IMG/VR virus record: IMGVR_UViG_3300044632_002565
Coordinates: 1 to 62,365 of that record
Source of the DNA: a virus
Taxonomy: Duplodnaviria > Caudoviricetes
DNA: 62,365 nt
Reading direction: 5' to 3' (one strand)
The translations under genes and the position numbers were made by a program. The notes beneath the pieces were generated by a model that worked only from the letters and a program-made list of their open reading frames with translations, had not been told where the DNA came from and did no database searches. Positions 4,902-16,833 of this stretch are shown in pieces; position 1 is the stretch's first letter, and every line of letters begins with the position of its first letter.

Positions 4902-5543
4902 GTGAATATATTGGAACATAGAATATCAGAAACTTTTGATAAAATTTTATCAAACAAAAGTCTCATAAATGAGATTTTGATTGATGTAGAATCTAATGAA
5001 TCAAAATATCCAAATTTAATTTTTCATAGAAGAACAAAAAAAGACAAGTTACCACAAGCTTTATTGAATGATTTACAAAAAGCTGCCGAGGCAAACAATT
5101 TTAAAATTACAATAGATTGGGCAAAAACAGGACACCGTAGACTAACTGCTAATGGTTCAGTTAGTAGACATTGGAGACAGTTAGCGGTAGACATCGATTA
5201 CATAATTTTACCTGACGGTAAAAAAGTAGTTGTTGCACCCAAAAATAAAGAAACTGTTGAAAAATTTACTAATACTTTACAGAGTATGGGTTATAGTAAA
5301 AATAAAGAGGGTAAAACTAATCCAAAAGCTTTTTTAACTTTCGGTTTCGCAGGTCACGATGACCATGTACACGTTTCAAATAGTACAGGCGAATCTTATG
5401 AAGGTGATGTGAGTCCTGGTTCTTCAGACAGTCCAGAATTTTCAACAGCAAGTGCTAAAACTGATATCTCTACATCCGATGCTGGTTGGACAGGAAATCT
5501 TTTCTACGATTATATAAAAGGGATTGCAAATCCCGTCAAATAG
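4902..5543 (+). CDS. Putative Zn peptidoglycan peptidase (M15/LAS-type), possibly virion-associated
   Basis: H-x6-D (SRHWRQLAVDI) and HxH (HDDHVHV); TATTTAT at 4890. Confidence 0.65.
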   Translation: MNILEHRISETFDKILSNKSLINEILIDVESNESKYPNLIFHRRTKKDKLPQALLNDLQKAAEANNFKITIDWAKTGHRRLTANGSVSRHWRQLAVDIDYIILPDGKKVVVAPKNKETVEKFTNTLQSMGYSKNKEGKTNPKAFLTFGFAGHDDHVHVSNSTGESYEGDVSPGSSDSPEFSTASAKTDISTSDAGWTGNLFYDYIKGIANPVK

Positions 5544-5546
5544 AAA

Positions 5547-5575
5547 TAAAAAAACCCACGATTGTGGGTTTTTTT
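5547..5575. terminator. Bidirectional terminator
   Basis: A run-ACCCAC-GATT-GTGGGT-T run between convergent genes. Confidence 0.7.
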
Positions 5576-5591
5576 ATTGGAAGAAATTTTA

Positions 5592-5777
5592 TTATTTAAC
5601 TTCTTCTACTTTTGGAGCTTCATCAACTTTTGTTGAATCTACAGGAACAACTGTAGAATCCACTTTAATTGAATCTACTACAACAGTTGAAGAATCAGTT
5701 GTTACTTCAGTTGATGCCCCATTTCCACCACATGCAGATAGCACTACAAGTGATACAATTGCAAAAATTTTTTTCAT
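5592..5777 (-). CDS. Small acidic lipoprotein
   Basis: Lipobox LSAC; DST-rich low-complexity tail typical of Bacteroidota lipoproteins. Confidence 0.75.
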   Translation of the reverse strand: MKKIFAIVSLVVLSACGGNGASTEVTTDSSTVVVDSIKVDSTVVPVDSTKVDEAPKVEEVK

Positions 5778-5929
5778 TTTTGTTTTTTTTTCGGTTAATG
5801 TTTTATAAAACTAACAAACATAAATATACCAAATTAGAACCAAAGTGTCAAGAAACCAAAAGTATTCAATTCAAACTTAAAAGGTGTGATTGAAATTTGT
5901 TGTGTTACCGTTACACCATATGACAAAAG

Positions 5930-5995
5930 AGACAGACCTTAAAGGACGTATTATTCCTCTCATTATCCTTCGAGATGAGGAGCGTGTGTCTGTCT
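5930..5995 (-). ncRNA. Structured RNA or long hairpin immediately downstream of tRNA-CAT
   Basis: AGACAGAC/GTCTGTCT outer stem, CTCAT/ATGAG inner stem. Confidence 0.35.
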
Positions 5996-5997
5996 TG

Positions 5998-6071
5998 TGG
6001 ACCCCCACGGGCTTGAACCGTGGACCTACTGATTATGAGTCAGTTGCTCTAACCAACTGAGCTAGGGGTCC
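5998..6071 (-). tRNA. tRNA-Ile2(CAT) (lysidine type; elongator Met not excluded)
   Basis: GGACCCC acceptor; ACTGA-CT CAT AA-TCAGT; no initiator features. Confidence 0.85.
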
Positions 6072-6281
6072 AATTAGGAAAGGAGAAGATGGTCGAGTGG
6101 ACAACTCCTTTTATGATTGGCATTACTATGATGATTCCAACTCCGAATATACTACCTCCATCATCAGGTTATCGTATATTCCTTCCCCAATCAACCTAAA
6201 AAATTCTTCAGCATTCTGGTTCCAGCATCGAGAAATTCCATCTTGCTTAGCCCATCTCACCGCTGTATGGGTACTGAAGTT
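6072..6281 (-). ncRNA. Candidate structured ncRNA inside tRNA operon
   Basis: No credible ORF; five stems and a possible pseudoknot (see findings). Confidence 0.5.
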
Positions 6282-6635
6282 TTAAACACAGGTTACTTTT
6301 TGTTGTTCCATAAAAGATAATTTATCGAAATAACCTCTCTGATATACTATCTTATCATTTTCAATCCAAAAGAAACCACACCCTCTTAACCCTTTTGGGT
6401 CTTTCCATTCTAATATCCCAACATTTCCATCTTCAAAAATATTCTCAACTATACATACCATTTCATGTTTCTCAAAATCTTCCTTAAAAAATTTTTTTAT
6501 ACTTTCCTTACCTTCAATGATACCTAATGCTGTTTGATGATTTATTGCAGAGTAAGAATATAATTCACTTAATCCTTCAAAATCATATTGGTTAAACCTT
6601 TCAACCCAAATTTGTAATACTTCTTTTGGTTTCAT
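6282..6635 (-). CDS. SnoaL/NTF2-like protein
   Basis: WVERFN..D...LSELY, GKESIKKFF, ILEWKDPKGLRGCGFF; start moved because the track start lies inside tRNA-Trp. Confidence 0.8.
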   Translation of the reverse strand: MKPKEVLQIWVERFNQYDFEGLSELYSYSAINHQTALGIIEGKESIKKFFKEDFEKHEMVCIVENIFEDGNVGILEWKDPKGLRGCGFFWIENDKIVYQRGYFDKLSFMEQQKVTCV

Positions 6636-6650
6636 AATTGTTTCATTTAG

Positions 6651-6723
6651 CACGCCTGAGAGGGCTCGAACCTCTGACAACTAGTTTTGGAGACTAGTAC
6701 TCTACCAACTGAGCTACAGACGT
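6651..6723 (-). tRNA. tRNA-Trp(CCA)
   Basis: CTAGT-CT CCA AA-ACTAG; GGTTCGAGCC. Confidence 0.95.
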
Positions 6724-6729
6724 GGGTAA

Positions 6730-7284
6730 TCATTTTACCAAAAACTTTCCAAATTTACTATTTTTTAATAAATCATCAAAATCTTTATATCCATTTTCTT
6801 GTGCATAGATATCGTTTTTCTTTTTACGATATTCTTTTATTTTTTCAGGGTTTCTCATTTGTTCAACGTTCTCAAAACCGAGGTCTTTAGCACATTCATA
6901 CTCACACCATTTGTGAGAACCAATTTCAATGTTTATTGGAAGGTCTGTCTCCAAAGATTCAATAAAATCTTCAAACTGATTTGCTGCGATGTGTGGCATA
7001 CAATAAGCACCTTCACTAACCGCATATCCTGTATCCTCCTGTCGGTCAAATATTTCCACTCTACCCATCCTGTATCGTTCACCTAAAAGAGAAAAAACAC
7101 CATATCCAACAGTATGATAACTGAAACGGCCAGGATGACTCACTCCTTGCATATCAACAAAATCAGGATTCACTTCCATATAGTTTGCTAATTTGTCTAT
7201 GAGAATCTCGTCTGAAAGTTCTTCAGGATGGTCAACCCTAATATTTTTCAAAAACCAAGCCAATCTATTTCTATCTATTTTCAT
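6730..7284 (-). CDS. Hypothetical protein
   Basis: 184-aa ORF translationally coupled to upstream HAD gene. Confidence 0.7.
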   Translation of the reverse strand: MKIDRNRLAWFLKNIRVDHPEELSDEILIDKLANYMEVNPDFVDMQGVSHPGRFSYHTVGYGVFSLLGERYRMGRVEIFDRQEDTGYAVSEGAYCMPHIAANQFEDFIESLETDLPINIEIGSHKWCEYECAKDLGFENVEQMRNPEKIKEYRKKKNDIYAQENGYKDFDDLLKNSKFGKFLVK

Positions 7285-7799
7285 CTTTCAAGTTTTTTAA
7301 TACATTCATCAATTTTATCTCTGAGTCTTCCACCTTGACCAAAATCTCCATCAACCTGAACATGTCTCCACTGTGGTATTCTCATCCATTTAAATTCTCC
7401 CTTCAAATTCAAATCGTCTATTGCTATCCAATTTGAAATTTTATTGTCTTTAGCCCATTTAACAATTTGTGCAGCTCTCTCCCAATCAATACTAGGTCTA
7501 CTCATTTTAAGCCAAAGGTCTTGATGTGTTGTGATGTCAACAATTGGAGCTGTCACACCGTAATATTCGAAAACTCTTTTTAATTGAACTATACTAAAAA
7601 ATTTTTTCCAATCTGAGCTTATAACCAAGGAAGCATTTGTCTCATTACAAATTTTTTGTAATGCTTGACAATCTTCCTCAACCCAAGGATAAGGAATCGT
7701 GAAGGTCTTCGTATTTTCGTTGAGCGTAACTCTCCCATCTCCCCAAGTTCCCCAAGCCAAAGGACCATCCACATCTATGAAAATTATTTTCCGTCTCAT
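7281..7799 (-). CDS. HAD phosphatase, Swiss-Army-Knife RNA-repair-like
   Basis: IIFIDVDGPL, LVISSDWK, WIAIDD. Confidence 0.8.
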   Translation of the reverse strand: MRRKIIFIDVDGPLAWGTWGDGRVTLNENTKTFTIPYPWVEEDCQALQKICNETNASLVISSDWKKFFSIVQLKRVFEYYGVTAPIVDITTHQDLWLKMSRPSIDWERAAQIVKWAKDNKISNWIAIDDLNLKGEFKWMRIPQWRHVQVDGDFGQGGRLRDKIDECIKKLER

Positions 7800-7800
7800 G

Positions 7801-7874
7801 TGGAAGTAAGTGGATTCGAACCACTGGCATCTATCGTATCAGAATAGCGCTCTGACCAGCTGAGCTATACTTCC
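7801..7874 (-). tRNA. tRNA-Ile(GAT)
   Basis: CTATT-CT GAT AC-GATAG; GGTTCGAATCC. Confidence 0.93.
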
Positions 7875-7880
7875 GTTGTG

Positions 7881-7952
7881 TGTGATTGGAGAGAATCGAA
7901 CTCTCACATGAAGTGCCACAAACTTCCGCCCTACCATTAGGCTACAACCACC
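7881..7952 (-). tRNA. tRNA-His(GTG)
   Basis: GAAGT-TT GTG GC-ACTTC; G-1 present; discriminator A. Confidence 0.9.
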
Positions 7953-7958
7953 ATGTTG

Positions 7959-8030
7959 AGGTCGGTACAGGAATCGAACCTGTGTAGAAAGTTTTGCAGA
8001 CTTTCACCTAAACCACTCGGCCAACCGACC
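7959..8030 (-). tRNA. tRNA-Cys(GCA)
   Basis: AAAGT-CT GCA AA-ACTTT; U73. Confidence 0.95.
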
Positions 8031-8036
8031 TTCTAT

Positions 8037-8846
8037 TTATTTTTTTCCGTAACCGTCAAGTTTTGCATCAGACCTATTTTTGATAATTTTTTTGTTGAAA
8101 GTATAAACAGGATTTTGACAATACCTGATATCAGTACAATAACATTTATCCATACCCAACATCATATTCACATTCTCCAAAGTAACCAAAGGAGAAAGTT
8201 CGGATAACATTGCATAAAGGGCGGCGTGTTCCATCCAAATATAATTTGTGAACATTCTGAAAAATTTTTTCGGTACAATATTAAAAACATTCCCATTGAC
8301 ACGATTATGTTTTAACCAAGGCCAAAATTCAGTTTTACCATCACTTAGGTATGCTTCTTTGAATTCGGTAAACATTTGCCAATCTGTTTCGGGCCACAAC
8401 CAATTCATTTTATCATAATCTACCGTCAGTTCATTCAGCCCTTTCAAAAACCAAGTATCTGTTCTGATTATAACATAAATGTCATATTCAGGAATTTTGT
8501 TTTTCAATTTTTTAAATCTTCCACCACTGCGAAAATTACCTGGAGGAACATTATAACGCCAAAAGTAAAAATTTTTCATAACCTCTTCGTCATGTAAACT
8601 TACTTCTTCGTAATCCAAAAATATTGCATTATAAAATCTGAAATACTCCGCATATTTTTCATGTTTATTTGTGAGAAGAGCAAATTCTACTTCATAACCT
8701 TCTTCTCGAATGGGATTGAAAATTTTTTCTTGATGATTTTCAAAATTTTCTTTCATATCTACTGAATAGGTATATGCCCCATCATGTGACATTTCCAAAT
8801 CGGAATATCCATTTCCAACGTAAATAACTAAACATGTTTTACTCAT
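8037..8846 (-). CDS. Hypothetical protein, possibly glycosyltransferase-like
   Basis: YDIYVIIRTD motif; start moved to MSKTCLV because track start lies in tRNA-Glu. Confidence 0.6.
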   Translation of the reverse strand: MSKTCLVIYVGNGYSDLEMSHDGAYTYSVDMKENFENHQEKIFNPIREEGYEVEFALLTNKHEKYAEYFRFYNAIFLDYEEVSLHDEEVMKNFYFWRYNVPPGNFRSGGRFKKLKNKIPEYDIYVIIRTDTWFLKGLNELTVDYDKMNWLWPETDWQMFTEFKEAYLSDGKTEFWPWLKHNRVNGNVFNIVPKKFFRMFTNYIWMEHAALYAMLSELSPLVTLENVNMMLGMDKCYCTDIRYCQNPVYTFNKKIIKNRSDAKLDGYGKK

Positions 8847-8863
8847 AGGTTTTGTTTTTTTTG

Positions 8864-8935
8864 TACTCGGTACGGGATTCGAACCCGTGCAACCACCGTG
8901 AAAGGGTGGTGACCTAACCACTAGTCGAACCGAGC
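8864..8935 (-). tRNA. tRNA-Glu(TTC)
   Basis: CCACC-CT TTC AC-GGTGG; GGTTCGAATCCC. Confidence 0.95.
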
Positions 8936-8944
8936 GTTCTTGAA

Positions 8945-8976
8945 CAAAATTACAACTAATATTTTAAACAACCAAA
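8945..8976 (-). promoter_or_regulatory. Bacteroidota sigma-A promoter for tRNA operon
   Basis: Minus strand TTTG-N20-TAATTTTG just upstream of tRNA-Glu. Confidence 0.7.
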
Positions 8977-8990
8977 AAACTTCTGAAAAC

Positions 8991-9068
8991 AAAAAACCCC
9001 GAACCACTTGCGTAGTCCGAGGTTGTATATATAACTCTTCAGGAGTTTAAATGTTTACCGAACCACGC
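8991..9068 (-). promoter_or_regulatory. Putative attenuator (terminator/antiterminator pair)
   Basis: Terminator AACCTCGGACTAC-GCAA-GTGGTTCGGGGTT-TTTT; its 5-prime arm can instead pair with TGCGTGGTTCGG at end of leader ORF. Confidence 0.7.
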
Positions 9069-9135
9069 ATAGGTTAGTCACCCAACAAATTTCTTGTTGC
9101 TCACTAAACTCTATATGATAGTTCGTTGTTTTCAT
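9055..9135 (-). CDS. Putative leader peptide MKTTNYHIEFSEQQEICWVTNLCVVR (not in ORF track)
   Basis: 26 codons; TATTTAT 6 nt upstream; last codons form antiterminator arm. Confidence 0.65.
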   Translation of the reverse strand: MKTTNYHIEFSEQQEICWVTNLCVVR

Positions 9136-9186
9136 ACTAAAATAAATATATTCTTTTTCATAAAAGTGTCAAGTGTAGGGTGTCAA

Positions 9187-9402
9187 TTAGTGATTACCAT
9201 TTGTTAGTGAAACGCCATGTCTAAATCCTTGAATGAATAACTCAATTTCTTCTTCATTCATATTTTGATAAAATTCACCAACGGTTACTCCGACCTCATT
9301 GCCTAAATCGGAGATATCACCAATATATTTAATTTCCAACGCTTTTTCTTTTAAAGCATCGGTAATCGAAATCAAACTGACGGGCGAAAATAGTCTTTCC
9401 AT
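9187..9402 (-). CDS. Hypothetical protein
   Basis: 71-aa ORF directly after tRNA-Leu. Confidence 0.65.
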   Translation of the reverse strand: MERLFSPVSLISITDALKEKALEIKYIGDISDLGNEVGVTVGEFYQNMNEEEIELFIQGFRHGVSLTNGNH

Positions 9403-9412
9403 ATCTTTTTTT

Positions 9413-9501
9413 TGGTACCTGAGGCCGGAGTCGAACCGGCACGGACATTACTGTCCAAGAGATTTTAAGTCTCTCTTGTCTACCTATTTCAACACTCAGG
9501 T
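9413..9501 (-). tRNA. tRNA-Leu(TAA)
   Basis: AGAGA-CT TAA AA-TCTCT; long variable arm GGACA-GTAA-TGTCC; encoded CCA. Confidence 0.95.
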
Positions 9502-9527
9502 GATATTCAAAAATAGTAAAAAAAATT

Positions 9528-10253
9528 TTAGTTAGAAAATTTTTCTTCAAAAATTGTGTTGGTCACATTTTGTTCTACGTTCTCTATAAAATTGAGAGTA
9601 ATTTCTCGTGAGTTTAAATCAAACACAAATTCTCCTTGAGAGCCTTCGTTTATTTCCCAACCCCCATAATTGTTTGACAATTGTTGATAGCACCAATCTT
9701 CAACATTAGTAGGGACAGATAGATTATTCTCAAAGTTACTCTCTATATATCCACTATCGCCAGAACCATAAAACTTCAAAGTAAAAATTGAATCTCGTAT
9801 ATTTTCATTATTGGCCATTTCTATCACTGCACCAAAAAGTGGTTCAATTTCCTCTTCGTCGTCATATACCAATACCCGTGTATCTGATGTATCATAATAG
9901 GTGTAAAAATCAGATACTGATATAGTTTCAGTGATTGTATCTATTTCAATTTCAACTCTTCTATAATTTATATCATCTACATCGGGATTATCATCATACA
10001 AACCTTTTTCGTAAATAAAATTAAAAATTTTTGAGAATATTTCTTGTAATTCTTCAGTAACTTCAATTTTGAAATTATTTGAAAAAGATTTTATTTCAGA
10101 AAAATCAATGTCATTTATATCATATTCTTCAACATCAATTTCAATCAAACCGTCTTTCATTCCTAAGGCTCTGAAATATCTGGTATAAGACCTTAAATAT
10201 TTTTTATCTTCTAAGGATAATATTGATGGGAGGCTTTTTTTGTTTTTTTTCAT
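9528..10253 (-). CDS. DUF6878-like acidic protein
   Basis: FYGSGDSGYIE and YGGWEINEGSQGEFVFD. Confidence 0.65.
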   Translation of the reverse strand: MKKNKKSLPSILSLEDKKYLRSYTRYFRALGMKDGLIEIDVEEYDINDIDFSEIKSFSNNFKIEVTEELQEIFSKIFNFIYEKGLYDDNPDVDDINYRRVEIEIDTITETISVSDFYTYYDTSDTRVLVYDDEEEIEPLFGAVIEMANNENIRDSIFTLKFYGSGDSGYIESNFENNLSVPTNVEDWCYQQLSNNYGGWEINEGSQGEFVFDLNSREITLNFIENVEQNVTNTIFEEKFSN

Positions 10254-10274
10254 AAAAATAAATATATTAAATGT

Positions 10275-10853
10275 TCAATTCCAACTATTTTTATCGTAAC
10301 CAAAGATTTCGAAATCGGTTTTGAATTTTTCAAAAATGAATTTAGACAAGTCTTCATTATATTCTCTTTTCCAATAGTCACAATCTGTTTCTCTGTAATT
10401 ATTTTTTATAATATTTTCAAAAAATATTATTTGAAGATTATCATTAAAATTATTTTCTATAATTTTTATATCCATCAAATCATCATAAAGATTTTCAACT
10501 TTCACTAAATAATCAGGTTTTTTATTAAAGTTCAAATAAATTTTTGATAACCATAATTGATTGGGATTGGTGTTTGATTCTTCAGAATCATCTACAATCT
10601 TCCGTATCCAACTTTCAAATTTAAGAGTTGAATATATTTTTTCTTTTTTAATCATATCAAAAATTGATACAATCCTTTTATATGGATTATGAACATTCAT
10701 TATAAATGTATAATCATCACAACCTTGAATTATTTCTTCATTATGATTTTGAATTACGTCGAAGTCAAAATATTCCATAATTGGAGTACAAGACCTCGAA
10801 GCTGTACTCAAAGGAGTGAACCATAAAATTTTATGTCTGTGAGAATAATTCAA
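10275..10853 (-). CDS. Sulfotransferase family 2-like protein (divergent)
   Basis: NVHNPYKRIVS, DYLVKVENL, DFEIFGY; probable TTG start by alignment with 53824 paralog. Confidence 0.65.
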   Translation of the reverse strand: MNYSHRHKILWFTPLSTASRSCTPIMEYFDFDVIQNHNEEIIQGCDDYTFIMNVHNPYKRIVSIFDMIKKEKIYSTLKFESWIRKIVDDSEESNTNPNQLWLSKIYLNFNKKPDYLVKVENLYDDLMDIKIIENNFNDNLQIIFFENIIKNNYRETDCDYWKREYNEDLSKFIFEKFKTDFEIFGYDKNSWN

Positions 10854-11203
10854 TCTTCGAATTCTAATTTTACAGTTTTCAACATCCATATGGGTCTTTT
10901 ATTCTCGTTCAAATTGTTTATCCATTCCTTTGCCGAAGGTATATAGTTATTACAATCTTCTTTTACGTGTTGTTCGCCCACATAACGTGTATAAACAGTT
11001 TTTCCATCTGAGTTTTTGAACTCGGTTCCAAACCTTTTTTCCATCTCAAAAATACCCTCAGAATGATGTCTGAACATTCTATGAAGTGAATCTCCAAACC
11101 AACTTTTTGTTTCGTCTAACCATTCGTGGAGGTGGATATAATCTTCGGGTTTCCCACCGAATTTCTTGGCTGAACTTTTTGCGTGTAGATTCGGATGTGC
11201 CAT
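10850..11203 (-). CDS. DUF6915-like His-rich protein
   Basis: MAHP..HAKSSAKKFGG..EDY..LH.W.D, HRMFRHHSEGIF, EQHVKED. Confidence 0.75.
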   Translation of the reverse strand: MAHPNLHAKSSAKKFGGKPEDYIHLHEWLDETKSWFGDSLHRMFRHHSEGIFEMEKRFGTEFKNSDGKTVYTRYVGEQHVKEDCNNYIPSAKEWINNLNENKRPIWMLKTVKLEFED

Positions 11204-11229
11204 ACTCAGTTTTTATATGATTCAGTTTG

Positions 11230-11302
11230 AGCCAGAGACAGGAATCGAACCTGCGACATACTGATTACAAATCAGTTGCTCTACATGCTGAGCTACTCGG
11301 GC
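11230..11302 (-). tRNA. tRNA-Thr(TGT)
   Basis: ACTGA-TT TGT AA-TCAGT; one acceptor mismatch; D-loop lacks GG. Confidence 0.85.
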
Positions 11303-11306
11303 GAAG

Positions 11307-11380
11307 CGTCCTCTCAAGGGCTCGAACCTTGGACCTAGTGATTAACAGTCACTCGCTCTAACCGACTGAGCTAAGAAGAC
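11307..11380 (-). tRNA. tRNA-Asn(GTT)
   Basis: AGTGA-CT GTT AA-TCACT; G73. Confidence 0.93.
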
Positions 11381-11385
11381 GTTTG

Positions 11386-11459
<74 letters not shown>

Positions 11460-11508
11460 GTTTCACAAAAGTAAGAAATTTTATTTGAAAAATAAGTGTT
11501 AGTAAAAA

Positions 11509-12264
11509 TTATTGGATGTCCCAAAATTTCTTTCTCTTATCTATGTTGGATTGAATTTTTTCCAATTGAGCGTTAAATTGACGAATTTTACTATCTATAA
11601 CTCTTTTCTTCGCCTCCAAAAATTCCCAATAATCTTTTCCCTCTTGTCTGAATCTAGCTCTATCTACATTTGTTAATTCGTCGGAATATAATTTAGGTCT
11701 TCCTCTTTTAATATCTCTTGTTGTTGGTTCAATTTGTTGAACTGAGGGTTGTTGAATTTGTTGTGGTTGGGTTTCTGTTTTAGTAATAGTAGTAATTGGT
11801 TCTGTGGGTTCAGGTTTGACCCTTCTGATAACTCTAATGCTTGGGTCATTTAGGTCAATTCTCGGTTTGTTTTTTGACCCTGGGGGTCTTCCTCTTCTCT
11901 TACCTATTGTATCTTGTATTTCATTTTTAAGATAATTTGTAATCTTGGTTTTTACAATTGGAAATCTTTCCATTGCAGTTTTTATAAAATTTTGAGCGTC
12001 TCTTTGACTCAAACTATTTAAAAAACTATCAATATAGTCCGTGGCCAAAATGATATCATCGTTAGATTTTGTAGATTTTGTTGTGTTTGTTGATAACCAT
12101 CTTTTAAATTCATCAAACATTGGAAGAGACGCAATTTTCACAGGGTTATCAATTGTGCTATCTAAAATCCAACCACCCATGTTTGAAGCAACCCAATTGA
12201 ATTTTTCATCTGAGTAATACCTGGCTTCGTTTATGTAGTCCTGAAAATAATTTAAAAATCTCAT
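11509..12264 (-). CDS. AT-hook protein with C-terminal coiled coil
   Basis: KRRGRPPGSKNKP and KRGRPK. Confidence 0.75.
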   Translation of the reverse strand: MRFLNYFQDYINEARYYSDEKFNWVASNMGGWILDSTIDNPVKIASLPMFDEFKRWLSTNTTKSTKSNDDIILATDYIDSFLNSLSQRDAQNFIKTAMERFPIVKTKITNYLKNEIQDTIGKRRGRPPGSKNKPRIDLNDPSIRVIRRVKPEPTEPITTITKTETQPQQIQQPSVQQIEPTTRDIKRGRPKLYSDELTNVDRARFRQEGKDYWEFLEAKKRVIDSKIRQFNAQLEKIQSNIDKRKKFWDIQ

Positions 12265-12321
12265 AAAAATTTATTTATAAATATATCAAAATTTGATATT
12301 TATTAACATAAATAGATTTCG

Positions 12322-12405
12322 ATGAGTCTTTTGGATTTCAAGAAAACTTATGAGAACATGGTGATTATGAGACGTGGAAAATCTCGAACCATAAACATAA
12401 CTTAA
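12322..12405 (+). other. 27-codon micro-ORF or small RNA between a TATTTAT motif and a terminator
   Basis: MSLLDFKKTYENMVIMRRGKSRTINIT; hairpins; terminator GGGGTCAA/TTGACCCC at 12424-12455. Confidence 0.4.
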
Positions 12406-12491
12406 ACTATTCAATATTTAAGGGGGGTCAAAATTGTTGACCCCTTTGTTTTTTTAATAATTTGACTTAAATTTGTTTAAATTTTTTTATT

Positions 12492-12980
12492 ATGAGCCAC
12501 GTGTTGGTTTTGAATTATGATTATACTCCTTTGAATGTAACCTCTGTACAACGAGGGTTTATACTTGTTGATAAAGGTAAAGCGGAGATTGTAAAATCAG
12601 ATGAAAATCCACTTGTTTCAGGATACAAAACTTATGTTCGTCCAGTAATTATTCGTTTGCTCCGATACATAAGGCATTACACACGACAACTAAGAGCAAA
12701 CAGAAATAGAATTTATAAAAGAGATGGATATGAGTGTGTTTATTGTGGCTCGAGTAAAAATTTAACTTTGGACCACGTCATTCCAAAATCAAGAGGTGGT
12801 TCGAATGGTTGGACTAATTTGGTAACTTCTTGTCAAAAATGCAACCTCAAAAAAGCCGACAAAACACCAGAAGAAGCTAGAATGAAACTTCGTCACGTAC
12901 CTTTTGCTCCAACCCTTGTGAATGAAAACGTTACCCTTTCTAAAATTTGGAATGATTTTCAAAATACCTTCGTTTATTAA
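12492..12980 (+). CDS. HNH endonuclease
   Basis: VLVLNYDYTPL, RDGYECVYCG, LTLDHVIPKSRGG, NLVTSCQKCNLKK. Confidence 0.92.
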   Translation: MSHVLVLNYDYTPLNVTSVQRGFILVDKGKAEIVKSDENPLVSGYKTYVRPVIIRLLRYIRHYTRQLRANRNRIYKRDGYECVYCGSSKNLTLDHVIPKSRGGSNGWTNLVTSCQKCNLKKADKTPEEARMKLRHVPFAPTLVNENVTLSKIWNDFQNTFVY

Positions 12981-13568: not shown

Positions 13569-15236
13569 ATGAAAGTCTTAGGTTTTTCTAATGGCCACGA
13601 CAAAGGAGCGGTCATAATTGAAGACGGTAGAATACTTGTCGGTATAACACAAGAAAGATTATCGAGAATTAAACACGATGGGGCATACCAAGGTGGAAAA
13701 ATACCCTTTGAGTCAATAAATTATTGTCTGAACGCTATAGGTTGTTCAATTAGGGAAATTGATTATTTTGTTTATAGTACCACTGAAAATATTGATGACG
13801 TCGAAGACCAATTTTTTTCAAAATTCTCACATGTGAGTAGAGAAAAAATTCAATTCATTCCTCATCATTTAGCACACGCATACTCAAGTTTTTTCAGTTC
13901 GGGATATGATGAAGCAGCTGTTGTTGTGGCCGATGCCTCAGGTAGTATAATCACTTATAAAAATAAAACTCATGAGTGGTATGACCCTAAAAAATGGGAT
14001 TTAAATCCTGATTTTGATTGGGCCGAGGGAATTTCAATTTTACATCTAAAAAAGGATTCTTACGAAGAACATTATAAAAGATGGGTGAAGTTTCCTGTTC
14101 CATGGAACACAAATGAAGAAACATCTTTAGGTACCATGTATTCTGAAGGTACATTACAACTTGTGTATGAACCTTCGAACCATACTTGGAGTGCCGGTAA
14201 ACTAATGGGATTAGCTTCTTATGGGGACCCAAAATTAGTTTCAGAAGCACCAGATTTTGTTAAAGAGATTGATGGAGAATTATCTATTCTCAATAACAGT
14301 ATTTACCCAAAAGTTAAATGGTCATCTGATTTCTTTTCTCGGTCAGTTGCTGCCGGAATTTATCAAAGGGAACAAGAAAGAGCTTCTTTGATTTTAGCTA
14401 AAATGGCTAAAAATATGACCAATTCCAATAACATTTGTGTGGCCGGAGGGTCTTTTCTAAATTGTAATTCAAATGAGCTTATTTTGAAATCAGGTTTGTA
14501 TGAAAATTGTTTTTTCTTACCTCCTGCCGATGATAGCGGTATTCCCCTCGGGTGTGCTTGGTACGCATATCAAAAAATGACTGAAATAAAAAATACAACA
14601 AAAATTTCACCTTATTTCGGAAGACCATACCACAAAAATGAAATTATATCCGCTTTAAATGAATACCCTGAGTTAGATTTTAAAGAATATAAAGATTTCA
14701 ATGAGTTGGTTGAACAAGTTACTTATTGGTTGACACAAAATAGAGTCATTGGATGGTTTCAAGATGGTTCTGAAATAGGTCCCAGAGCCTTGGGTAACAG
14801 GTCAATTATTGCATCACCAATTACAAAATGGATGTGTGGCCACATAAATGCCGACATTAAAGGAAGAGAGTGGTATCGTCCTTTCGCTCCAGCAGTTCTC
14901 TACGAGTATCAAAGTGAAATATTTGATATGGATTATTTATCTCCACATATGTTAGTGACAACAACTGTGAAGGAATCTTGGAGAGAAAAAATACCCTCAG
15001 TTGTCCATGTAGATAATTCAGCAAGAATTCAGTCCGTTACGGAAAAAAATAATTATAAATTTTATACCCTTATTAAAAGTTTTTATGAAAAAACTCAGGT
15101 TCCTGTACTTTTAAACACAAGTTTTAACGGACCGAGTGAACCAATTGTGGAAACTCCAAATGACGCAATAAAAACTTTTATAAATTGTAATTTAAATTAT
15201 TTGGTACTGAATAATTTTTTAATTTGGAAAAACTAA
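13569..15236 (+). CDS. Carbamoyltransferase (NodU/CmcH/TobZ family) 1
   Basis: GHD, ERLSRIKH, HHLAHA, GKLMGLASYG, EIGPRALGNRS, RPFAP, LLNTSFN. Confidence 0.92.
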   Translation: MKVLGFSNGHDKGAVIIEDGRILVGITQERLSRIKHDGAYQGGKIPFESINYCLNAIGCSIREIDYFVYSTTENIDDVEDQFFSKFSHVSREKIQFIPHHLAHAYSSFFSSGYDEAAVVVADASGSIITYKNKTHEWYDPKKWDLNPDFDWAEGISILHLKKDSYEEHYKRWVKFPVPWNTNEETSLGTMYSEGTLQLVYEPSNHTWSAGKLMGLASYGDPKLVSEAPDFVKEIDGELSILNNSIYPKVKWSSDFFSRSVAAGIYQREQERASLILAKMAKNMTNSNNICVAGGSFLNCNSNELILKSGLYENCFFLPPADDSGIPLGCAWYAYQKMTEIKNTTKISPYFGRPYHKNEIISALNEYPELDFKEYKDFNELVEQVTYWLTQNRVIGWFQDGSEIGPRALGNRSIIASPITKWMCGHINADIKGREWYRPFAPAVLYEYQSEIFDMDYLSPHMLVTTTVKESWREKIPSVVHVDNSARIQSVTEKNNYKFYTLIKSFYEKTQVPVLLNTSFNGPSEPIVETPNDAIKTFINCNLNYLVLNNFLIWKN

Positions 15237-15237
15237 A

Positions 15238-16833
15238 ATGAGTAGAATTTACGGTATGTTCACCGGCTCGCATAGCCCGTGTATAGCTTACTTAGAAGAT
15301 GGAGAAATAATTTTTTCTTTAGAGGAAGAACGTTTGACCAGAATAAAGGCTGGTGATAATTTTGACATTCAAGCTGAACTTTGTTTGAATAGAGCTGAAA
15401 TAGAAACAAAAATCAAATTTCATGAAGCCGATTACAGAGTAATAGCTCAACCTGTACCTGATGAATTTTTGAGAAAAATTTCCAAAGGACAACCTTACGA
15501 AAGAGTAAGTCATCACACCGCTCATGCCTACGGTGCTTATTTTACAAGTGGACTCGAAGGTAAAGCAATTACAATAACTTACGACGGGGGTGGTCAAGAA
15601 TCTGTAATGAAAATTTTTTTATGTGAAGATGGAAAAATGACTTTAATAAAAAATATACCATACGCAGGTTTTGGTAGTTTATCTCATTTATGGGGTTTCA
15701 GCACATCTAGCATGAGAGGTTACGATGAATACAACGAAGGGAAATGGAAAATGTGTAAAGATGAGGGAAAACTTATGGGAATGGCCCCTGATGGGTTTTA
15801 CGATGAAAAAATTTATAAAATTTTGAATTCATTGGTGAATTATGAAAATTTAAGATTTTTTCCTTCAGGAACCGCGTCAAAAACACAATTTGTTTGTGAC
15901 ATGATGTTTGAAGATGGCTTTTTTGAAAGTCAAATGAACAAAGAAATTTTTTGTTTCAATCTTCAAAAATTGACAAATGACTTGATGTTGAGATTCATAA
16001 ATGATTTACATAACTTATATCCTGAATATACAAAACTTTGTTTTGCTGGTGGCCTTTTTGCAAATGTGAAACTGAATCAACACATAAACGAATTACCTTG
16101 GGTTGATGAGGTTTATATTTTACCACCTATGGGTGATGAGGGATTAGCATTAGGTGCTGCAATATATAAGGCTGTAGAGATTGGTGAGTGGTCCAAACCG
16201 AGACGTCTAAAAAATGTTTTTTTTGGTTCAAAATACTCTGAAGAAAAAATTCAAAGGTCATCAACTTATTATAATTTCAAAAGAAAAGAATATGATGTAA
16301 AAGAGATGGCAAAAAAAATTGCCGATGGTAAAATAGTCGGATGGTTTAATGGAGGTTCTGAATTAGGTCCTAGAGCTTTGGGTGCGAGAAGTATCTTAGT
16401 GAAACCTACGGACAAAGAAACCCATAAAATTCTAAACGGAAGACTTAAAAGATATGATACAATGCCCTTTGCACCAATTGTTATGTCTGAACATTTTGAT
16501 GAAATTTTCACCTGTTCAAAATCAAAGTATACCGCAGAATTCATGACTATGTGTTATTCAACAAAAGAGGAATGGATTGACAAAATTCCAGCAGTAATCC
16601 AAAAATCGGACAAAACAGCAAGACCTCAAATTGTGGTAAAAGAGTCAAATCCAAAGTTTTGGGAAATCTTGAATGAATTTTATTTGATAACAGGTATTCC
16701 TGTTCTTTTAAACACATCATTCAATTCTCACAACGAGCCGATTGTTGAACATCCTCGTCATGCCTTTGATTCTTTACAAAAAAAAATAATAGATGAACTC
16801 ATATTAGAAGATTATGTATATTACTCTGAATAA
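15238..16833 (+). CDS. Carbamoyltransferase (NodU/CmcH/TobZ family) 2
   Basis: EEERLTRIK, HHTAHA, DGGG, EGKLMGMA, ELGPRALGARS, LLNTSFN. Confidence 0.92.
   Translation: MSRIYGMFTGSHSPCIAYLEDGEIIFSLEEERLTRIKAGDNFDIQAELCLNRAEIETKIKFHEADYRVIAQPVPDEFLRKISKGQPYERVSHHTAHAYGAYFTSGLEGKAITITYDGGGQESVMKIFLCEDGKMTLIKNIPYAGFGSLSHLWGFSTSSMRGYDEYNEGKWKMCKDEGKLMGMAPDGFYDEKIYKILNSLVNYENLRFFPSGTASKTQFVCDMMFEDGFFESQMNKEIFCFNLQKLTNDLMLRFINDLHNLYPEYTKLCFAGGLFANVKLNQHINELPWVDEVYILPPMGDEGLALGAAIYKAVEIGEWSKPRRLKNVFFGSKYSEEKIQRSSTYYNFKRKEYDVKEMAKKIADGKIVGWFNGGSELGPRALGARSILVKPTDKETHKILNGRLKRYDTMPFAPIVMSEHFDEIFTCSKSKYTAEFMTMCYSTKEEWIDKIPAVIQKSDKTARPQIVVKESNPKFWEILNEFYLITGIPVLLNTSFNSHNEPIVEHPRHAFDSLQKKIIDELILEDYVYYSE

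Follow-up and report, generated by a model that had tools for sequence, protein, structure and literature searches.

The leader element and the tRNA genes behind it

The window, i.e. the whole stretch of 62,365 nt analysed in this study, is a phage fragment from an IMG/VR virus record (IMGVR_UViG_3300044632_002565, CheckV completeness 20%), and its phage occurs in lake-water metagenomes. A leader element, termed L1 here and regarded as a putative transcription attenuator, was found at 9172-8991 upstream of a block of tRNA genes, where a short open reading frame (ORF) is enclosed between a promoter-like site and an intrinsic terminator. Its parts and the genes that follow are listed below; all features of the element lie on the minus strand.

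9143-9172, minus strand: promoter P1, a consensus match, with TTGACA at 9172-9167 and the box TATATTTA at 9150-9143
9055-9135, minus strand: leader ORF, 26 codons from the ATG at 9135 plus TAA (9057-9055), peptide MKTTNYHIEFSEQQEICWVTNLCVVR
9103-9125, minus strand: R1, 5' strand of the long hairpin and putative anti-antiterminator partner of R2 (minimum free energy fold; RNAalifold on class I)
9082-9099, minus strand: codons 13-18 (QQEICW), apical hairpin CAACAA/UUGUUG, the proposed sensing codons (invariant stem; tRNA match)
9058-9080, minus strand: R2, 3' strand of the long hairpin, of which 9069-9058 alternatively pairs with R3 (fold and duplex tests)
9033-9047, minus strand: small hairpin in the interval from stop codon to terminator (fold; one covarying pair)
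8991-9024, minus strand: intrinsic terminator, with R3 as 5' arm and loop (9024-9008), R4 as 3' arm (9007-8995) and the T tract at 8996-8991 (fold)
8945-8976, minus strand: second promoter P2, TTTG-20 nt-TAATTTTG, 9 nt upstream of tRNA-Glu (read in the sequence)
8863-8935, minus strand: tRNA-Glu(ttc), first gene of the proposed controlled block (this and the other tRNAs from tRNA gene calls)
7958-8030, minus strand: tRNA-Cys(gca)
7880-7951, minus strand: tRNA-His(gtg)
7800-7874, minus strand: tRNA-Ile(gat)
7281-7799, minus strand: HAD_SAK_2 gene, an RNA-repair-type HAD protein inside the tRNA block (PF18143, E 8.7e-19)
6650-6723, minus strand: tRNA-Trp(cca)
5997-6071, minus strand: CAT-anticodon tRNA, called Met by ARAGORN

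P1 has the form TTGACA-16 nt-TATATT at 9172-9145 with 11 of 12 positions matching, and is tied with one other site as the best of 29 promoter-like sites in 5500-12500. The TATTTAT motif pointed out in an earlier note, which was made from the letters of the DNA alone, lies inside this site at 9148-9142. Since the P1 box ends 7 nt before the ATG, the leader mRNA would be leaderless or nearly so. In versions of L1 from related phages the distance from box end to ATG is 6-8 nt in 11 of 18 and 16-17 nt in six, and a box was not found by regular expression in one. Note that Shine-Dalgarno sequences precede 4 of 65 window genes against a background of 8%, i.e. without enrichment, and that the upstream regions are A-rich; the lack of a ribosome-binding site in front of the leader ORF is thus no argument against its translation.

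Both the 26-codon ORF and the terminator described in the earlier note were confirmed. The terminator stem (9024-8995) consists of 13 pairs, six of them G-C, closed by a GCAA loop and followed by the T tract, and is the strongest of seven terminator-like sites, compared with 3.9 +/- 1.9 in shuffles. An antiterminator formed by the last four sense codons had also been proposed, and 9069-9058 does form with 9020-9009 a 12-bp duplex of -18.6 kcal/mol, equalled by 1 of 200 shuffles. The fold of the whole 151-nt transcript has a z-score of -4.9 with none of 200 shuffles as good. To this model we add a putative anti-antiterminator, the R1:R2 hairpin that spans the whole ORF. The RNA-repair-type HAD gene and the tRNAs for Glu, Cys, His, Ile(gat) and Trp had been noticed correctly; the sixth tRNA had been labelled Ile2, a plausible label on which an alignment does not decide.

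A TAnnTTTG box with an upstream TTTG, corresponding to P2, is present 3' of the terminator in 16 of 18 L1 versions. In one relative (L043, ~2425-2575) this second promoter box and tRNA-Glu are deleted and tRNA-Cys and tRNA-Ile come about 150 nt after the terminator, so that these two tRNAs may depend on read-through. A 159-nt contig of depth 2 from one aquatic RNA library spans 8991-9124 of a class I relative and gives a weak hint of expression; its length is close to that of the terminated transcript. The RNA runs X18-X20, placed on the tRNA parts alone, gave no coverage of the element, and this speaks neither for nor against its expression.

These features can also be read as a stand-alone small gene, in which the RNA of about 150 nt from P1 to the terminator is a small RNA or encodes a 26-residue micropeptide, P2 serves the tRNAs, and the alternative pairings reflect RNA stability or are relics of hairpin duplication. 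The unit possesses its own strong promoter and its own terminator, P2 is conserved as stated above, the RNA contig is about as long as the terminated species, and the RNA from the stop codon to the terminator is nearly invariant in nucleotides. Moreover, parts of two reports on Sinorhizobium describe attenuator RNAs which, once liberated, can act in trans, as can leader peptides (PMC6614838, PMC7298713). We regard the small gene as unlikely in view of the behaviour of the ORF and of the paralogous leaders described in the following sections.

Reading frame and alternative pairings in related phages

Relatives were found through the exact terminator, the 71-aa ORF upstream of the element, the apical hairpin, and a pattern outside the ORF together with a covariance model. 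At least 19 distinct L1 versions were obtained from related freshwater jumbo phages. When the covariance model was run on 75 new loci listed by a loose, ORF-independent viral scan, one new L1 (L099) and one leaderless cassette (L091) were found. A nucleotide search of 50,697 isolate phage records matched only the tRNA-Glu part (417 records, none with more than 19% coverage), and a scan of genome contigs for the L1 apical motif gave no place.

The ORF starting from the same ATG is intact in all 19 distinct L1 versions, with 26 codons in 16, 28 in two and 32 in one, and in 18 of them tRNA-Glu comes first after the element. Frame 0 is free of stop codons in 14 of 14 distinct 78-nt sequences, compared with 3 of 70 frame-sequence combinations for the other five frames, and when the 105 substitutions were redrawn randomly in a simulation the frame stayed open in just 1.1-5.8% of the runs. 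The conservation check that the earlier note had called for thus gave an intact ORF. Changes within synonymous codon pairs are barely more frequent in frame 0 (22/105) than out of frame (16/102 and 10/103), the counts of synonymous and non-synonymous changes lie near neutrality, so that coding selection cannot be judged from them, and the variable columns at codon positions 1, 2 and 3 number 12, 15 and 18 of 26. In L099 a 2-nt deletion alters the last eight residues without touching R2, and the stop codon comes 9 nt further on. An ORF that is kept while its peptide changes freely is what a leader peptide predicts, and a micropeptide or a non-coding RNA predicts otherwise. The weakly constrained and, in L099, frame-shifted peptide therefore speaks against the small gene, and so does the ORF open in 19 of 19 versions, which a non-coding RNA would not need. 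The three leader peptides (L1 and the paralogous L2 and L3 introduced below) have no match in PHROGs or Pfam, and the missing PHROG family also counts against this alternative. Two further candidates were set aside, namely a type I toxin, as the peptide is not hydrophobic (judged by eye), and a degenerate tRNA; a functional micropeptide was set aside as well.

At the RNA level, R1 and R2 form a long hairpin spanning the ORF, which folded alone has a mean z-score of -3.7; equal stability was reached by no more than 5 of 100 shuffles for 17 of 18 L1, 5 of 8 L2 and 4 of 7 L3 versions. The apical stem CAACAA/UUGUUG, which encodes QQEICW, has all six pairs invariant in 16 of 16 sequences, and the terminator, small hairpin and apical stem together are 98.7% paired. 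The covarying pair of the small hairpin is C-G in eight sequences, U-G in six and U-A in two, and the basal pair of the terminator is changed from A-U to G-C in one sequence. The alternative R2:R3 pairing is made up of standard pairs in 89.1% of 192 cells (16 sequences), compared with 22-40% in slid controls. Two adjacent R2:R3 pairs change on both sides in five sequences, and none of 500 shuffles reaches the covariation score, which means that the antiterminator of the earlier note is not only retained in relatives but also covaries. For 27 of 33 modules, no more than 20 of 200 shuffles equal or exceed the cognate R2:R3 duplex, and the terminator folds with -11.9 to -21.9 kcal/mol across all 33. 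The competing folds have similar ranges, being -15.5 to -20 kcal/mol for the R2:R3 segment, -15.5 to -21 for the terminator and -19 to -26 for R1:R2. With a ribosome modelled at codons 1-11, before R4 is made, the probability of R2:R3 is at least 0.83 in 16 of 16 versions; with the ribosome from codon 21 on, it is 0.

The invariance of the apical stem raises a further alternative, a switch independent of ribosomes, in which tRNA-Glu or a protein would bind the apical hairpin and shift the balance of R1:R2 versus R2:R3, the GARAU loop displaying a Glu codon. The sole loop change in the 16 sequences is A/G at the wobble position of this Glu codon, and tRNA-Glu is the usual first gene downstream. 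Such a switch leaves the open frame, the conserved ATG and the conserved stop region unexplained, and the apical loop of L2 has only 4 nt. It also finds no counterpart in Rfam, since no T-box was matched at E <= 1 over 5500-12500 and neither a T-box nor any other family was matched for the element at E <= 10 over 8970-9190. We therefore consider this switch very improbable. A T-box-like tRNA binder was likewise set aside.

Paralogous leaders and the tRNAs matching their codons

Two further leaders, L2 and L3, first surfaced as weaker matches of the covariance model. In larger phages the eight L2 versions stand in front of the first tRNA block (Pro-Asn-Asp-Gly-Gly-Thr-Ala), and the eight L3 versions precede a tRNA-Asn-led array in other phages. 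The phage of the window possesses L1 only, with a plain promoter before its tRNA-Pro. The ORFs of L2 and L3 have 30-53 codons, start with MK(T/Q)L and are intact in 8 of 8 versions each, with a promoter box close to the ATG. Both leaders show a hairpin over the ORF, a terminator, and a stretch in the 3' part of the ORF that is complementary to the 5' arm of the terminator, although their sequences differ from L1. L3 peptides form 72 clusters in metagenome protein sets, where they are called 'hypothetical protein' if named at all, and a Pfam domain was found in none of these clusters.

In L3 all four regions change jointly at the same position, with UUGAC / GUCAG / CUGAC / GUCGG in one type and UUAAC / GUUAG / CUAAC / GUUAG in the other, and the changes in R1 are synonymous. 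In L2, R2 and R3 covary from A-U to G-C, with AGAUUCAG pairing CUGAAUCU versus AGGUUCAG pairing CUGAACCU. A TAnnTTTG box after the terminator is present in 16 of 18 L1 and 5 of 8 L2 versions and in none of seven L3 versions, where the first tRNA follows the T tract after only 5-14 nt. With no promoter box and such a short gap, the tRNAs behind L3 would be reachable only through terminator read-through; this promoter-free gap between the terminator and the controlled genes is absent from L1. The four-way covariation and the missing promoter before the L3 tRNAs are both at odds with a stand-alone small gene. The paralogous leaders also bear on how the element is kept off. The earlier note had the antiterminator masked by a ribosome at the stop codon, which suits L1, as R2 abuts the stop codon there, and fails as a general off-switch, as R2 ends 11-14 nt before the stop codon in L2 and L3. 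R1:R2 would therefore be the general off-state.

Some observations on the surroundings of L3 may be added. Phages bearing L3 encode a tmRNA next to the tRNA array (L016, 5818-6180). An L3 leader with tRNA-Asn, Val and Tyr is located on a 1.6-kb contig binned as a Cyanobium metagenome-assembled genome (MAG) (L186), which is probably a mis-binned phage fragment. On a scaffold of an archaeal MAG (L190) the motif lies in a 13-codon ORF with the terminator and tRNA absent nearby, and this match is probably due to chance.

The leader of the window contains a codon for every downstream tRNA, as the earlier note had pointed out; random 25-codon windows of the phage's own ORFs cover the six tRNAs with p = 0.0065, or 0.011 if ATA is left out. 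The expectation that leader codons mirror the downstream tRNAs then held on the second leader, found afterwards. In the complete genome G001, 23 of the 32 codons of L2 are read by tRNAs of its own block and eight by those of the other block, and for the 25 codons of L1 the figures in the same comparison are 5 and 19 (Fisher p = 1.2e-4, post hoc). The same test of own versus other block gives p = 3.1e-5 for G003 and 3.4e-4 for L039. Against random windows of phage ORFs, p is at most 0.002 for L2 and 0.005-0.024 for L1. The matching codons are the central ones of each leader, located at the hairpin tip, and their run ends about 13-15 nt before R2. Two single cases fit as well: L039 lacks tRNA-Asp and has no Asp codon in its L2, and the complete genome G005, which has no match to tRNA-Ile(gat), carries ACT in the core where others have ATT.

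An attenuator that depends on ribosomes and responds to general translation trouble, such as slow ribosomes, inhibitors or peptide-mediated arrest, instead of to particular tRNAs would have an identical architecture. It would suit the absence of a single-codon run and the finding that in the model R2 becomes free in 16 of 16 versions when the ribosome stalls at codons 1-11 or at 18-19; for stalls at codons 12-17 several class II versions give a lower probability, with R1:R2 re-forming around the modelled ribosome. It would also suit the comparison of L041 with L043, in which all four differences are synonymous and at third positions. What it does not predict is the presence of two leaders per genome with opposite codon make-up, each fitting its own tRNA block, and we regard it as quite unlikely. 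The same codon-tRNA match is likewise not expected of a stand-alone small gene.

Proposed attenuation, known systems and neighbouring genes

We propose, with a probability of about 0.65 and judging from sequence, that 9172-8991 is a ribosome-mediated transcription attenuator of the leader-peptide type, which would raise tRNA transcription when the matching codons are read slowly. It is supported in silico by the conserved ORF, the four regions with their alternative pairings, the paralogous modules and the match between codons and tRNAs; the attenuator interpretation of the earlier note thus gains support from the comparison with relatives and from the paralogous leaders. P1 would start the RNA at the AUG or a few bases before it, with the ORF inside the R1:R2 hairpin and the R3:R4 terminator after it. 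With no ribosome, or with a ribosome that has run to the end, R1:R2 would re-form or R2 would be covered; R3:R4 would then fold, and transcription would end about 150 nt from its start. In L1 a ribosome at the stop codon would mask R2 as well, because of the position of R2. A ribosome delayed on the central QQEICW codons would separate R1 from R2 and leave R2 free; the free R2 would pair with R3, the terminator would be blocked, and the polymerase would read on into the genes for tRNA-Glu, Cys, His, Ile, Trp and the CAT-anticodon tRNA together with the interspersed genes, including that of the HAD protein. Because the central codons are read by tRNAs encoded downstream, this would constitute a negative feedback adding tRNA transcription when those tRNAs are scarce. 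In L1 the attenuator would add to a basal level from P2.

Several points weigh against this proposal. We infer translation of the ORF, stalling and regulated read-through from the sequence. The conserved promoter-like site P2 lies between the L1 terminator and tRNA-Glu, so that read-through in L1 can only supplement basal transcription, and the caveat of the earlier note on supplementary control is correct for L1. When R4 is present, the terminator is the preferred equilibrium fold for most positions of the modelled ribosome. Of the eight versions modelled, just two let the antiterminator win at any position, namely the window (ribosome at codons 12-13 and 18) and L003 (codons 12-13). Equilibrium folding thus does not discriminate, and a switch would have to act through folding kinetics, like that of classical attenuators. 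Before R4 is made, R2:R3 is favoured or competitive even without a ribosome in seven of eight class I versions, including the window, and the default state thus rests on folding kinetics too. Covariation of R1:R2 within classes is weak, compensatory changes affecting 1 of 26 pairs of class I and none of the 21 pairs of class II, and R2:R3 has modest support in L2 and in class III of L1, with z between -0.5 and -2.2. The small hairpin and terminator occur without a leader in L091 (4810-4885), an unrelated AT-rich phage contig. As to the codons, the codon-tRNA tests were post hoc, and the Fisher p-values are not independent because the three phages tested are related. No long run of a single codon like those of the trp and his leaders exists, with only CAA CAA invariant; of the 25 codons of the window leader, the six downstream tRNAs leave 16 unread, and for 11, among them codons for Lys, Tyr, Phe, Val and Gln, the entire window contains no tRNA gene that fits.

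The cassette in L091 is placed after an ordinary gene and before a protein gene, and the small hairpin with the terminator may represent a generic terminator unit.

A broader proposal, to which we give even odds, is that the tRNA arrays of jumbo phages are split into separately regulated blocks, each with a leader spelling the tRNAs of its block, and that the leaders form a multi-tRNA demand sensor derived from host attenuators. QQEICW would then stand before Glu...Cys-Ile...Trp...Gln and RPTTPNGDxG before Pro-Asn-Asp-Gly-Gly-Thr. As part of the same proposal, the phage would top up tRNAs that become limiting through codon-usage mismatch, host shut-off or tRNA-cleaving defences.

Among known systems, the closest architecture is that of the attenuators of amino-acid operons, such as trp, his, thr and the multivalent ilvGMEDA leader, of which thr and ilv sense more than one amino acid. 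They share with the phage leader a short ORF, the mutually exclusive 1:2, 2:3 and 3:4 pairings, an intrinsic terminator, and regulatory codons tied to the product of the controlled genes. Classical attenuators control biosynthetic enzymes, whereas the phage-encoded leader precedes tRNAs. Its ORF spans both R1 and R2, its proposed sensing codons at the hairpin tip form a mixed series that serves five or six tRNAs, its mRNA would be leaderless or nearly so, and L1 has the additional promoter P2 behind its terminator. T-boxes resemble the proposed attenuator in sensing tRNA status through the choice between terminator and antiterminator; they contain no ORF, recognise uncharged tRNA by direct binding, and regulate synthetase and amino-acid genes. 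Antibiotic-responsive attenuators with leader ORFs likewise open a terminator when a ribosome stalls on a short ORF upstream; their trigger is a drug-bound ribosome and not codon supply, and they control resistance genes. The tRNA cluster of phage T4 encodes small stable RNAs, which parallel the phage leader as small RNAs of unknown role among phage tRNA genes, and we know of no report of an ORF, alternative pairing or a regulatory role for them.

The host of the freshwater jumbo phages bearing L1 is predicted, from sequence features, to belong to Bacteroidota. Two complete relatives of 321 kb carrying the same L1 element encode the ribosomal protein bS21, and with bS21, a GC content of 33% and tRNA arrays the group of the window phage resembles the freshwater phages with predicted Bacteroidetes hosts described in parts of PMC9723584. 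A genome scan with the L3 start motif led to the trp leaders of four Autumnicola (Flavobacteriaceae) genomes, which begin with MKTFTVHTWWW and have the same box placed 5 nt upstream of the ATG. One of these leaders (L187), scanned with Rfam, matched RF01692 (Bacteroid-trp) with 77.5 bits and lies upstream of trpE. The Autumnicola leaders come from the same phylum as the predicted hosts, have the start MKTFTVHT where L3 has MKTLTLHT and the window MKTTNYHI, and possess a TATATTTG-type box a few bases before the ATG and a AUAUAUAC stretch ahead of the terminator. In N-terminal motif and in the geometry of the promoter, the phage leaders thus agree with genuine attenuators of Bacteroidota. They differ from RF01692 in lacking a run of Trp codons, and no match to this family was obtained at E <= 10 for 8970-9190 of the window or for L018 3560-3850 (gathering score 49 bits, with L187 as the control). 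The construction differs too, since in the two host leaders compared the final 45 nt of the ORF showed no pairing with the terminator's 5' arm, 160 and 196 of 200 shuffles being as good.

In a full-text literature search, neither attenuation of tRNA genes nor phage leaders of this kind were found described, and to our knowledge tRNA genes have not been found under the control of leader-peptide attenuation. If the proposal is true, the element would be the first direct feedback loop in which the sensor is the speed of the ribosome on given codons and the output is the tRNAs that read them. Phages would then regulate tRNA supply and not merely carry tRNAs, the division of phage tRNA arrays into blocks would be explained, and a compact natural sensor of codon-specific translation speed would be available as a reporter. 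The finding bears on the debate over why phages encode tRNAs, set out in passages of PMC10264068 and PMC11555353 as codon compensation versus escape from tRNA-targeting defences.

The remaining genes around the element were also inspected. A 269-aa ORF downstream of the leader (8037-8846) has no match in Pfam or PHROGs, and a 184-aa ORF (6730-7284) has none in Pfam or among PDB sequences. Other ORFs interspersed in the tRNA array on the minus strand (6282-6680, 9528-11203) encode a SnoaL-like protein, DUF6878, a sulfotransferase-like protein and DUF6915. The 71-aa ORF (9187-9402, minus strand) is conserved directly upstream of L1 in most versions and has no Pfam or PHROG match; its distant homologues with 54% identity (L013, L014, L030) adjoin neither leader nor tRNAs. 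A tRNA-Leu(tag) gene lies between this ORF and the leader promoter in many relatives, e.g. L003, L024 and L023, and the window has only a short junction sequence there (9173-9190). Since the 71-aa protein of L023 is 100% identical to that of the window, this tRNA-Leu gene is present or absent among very close strains. A near-identical tRNA-Glu(ttc) gene occurs in phage contigs (L015-L021) in otherwise different surroundings. Further along the window, on the plus strand at 13569-16833, a tandem pair of Nol-like carbamoyltransferase genes was found (phrog_1601, E 4e-109 and 3e-89).

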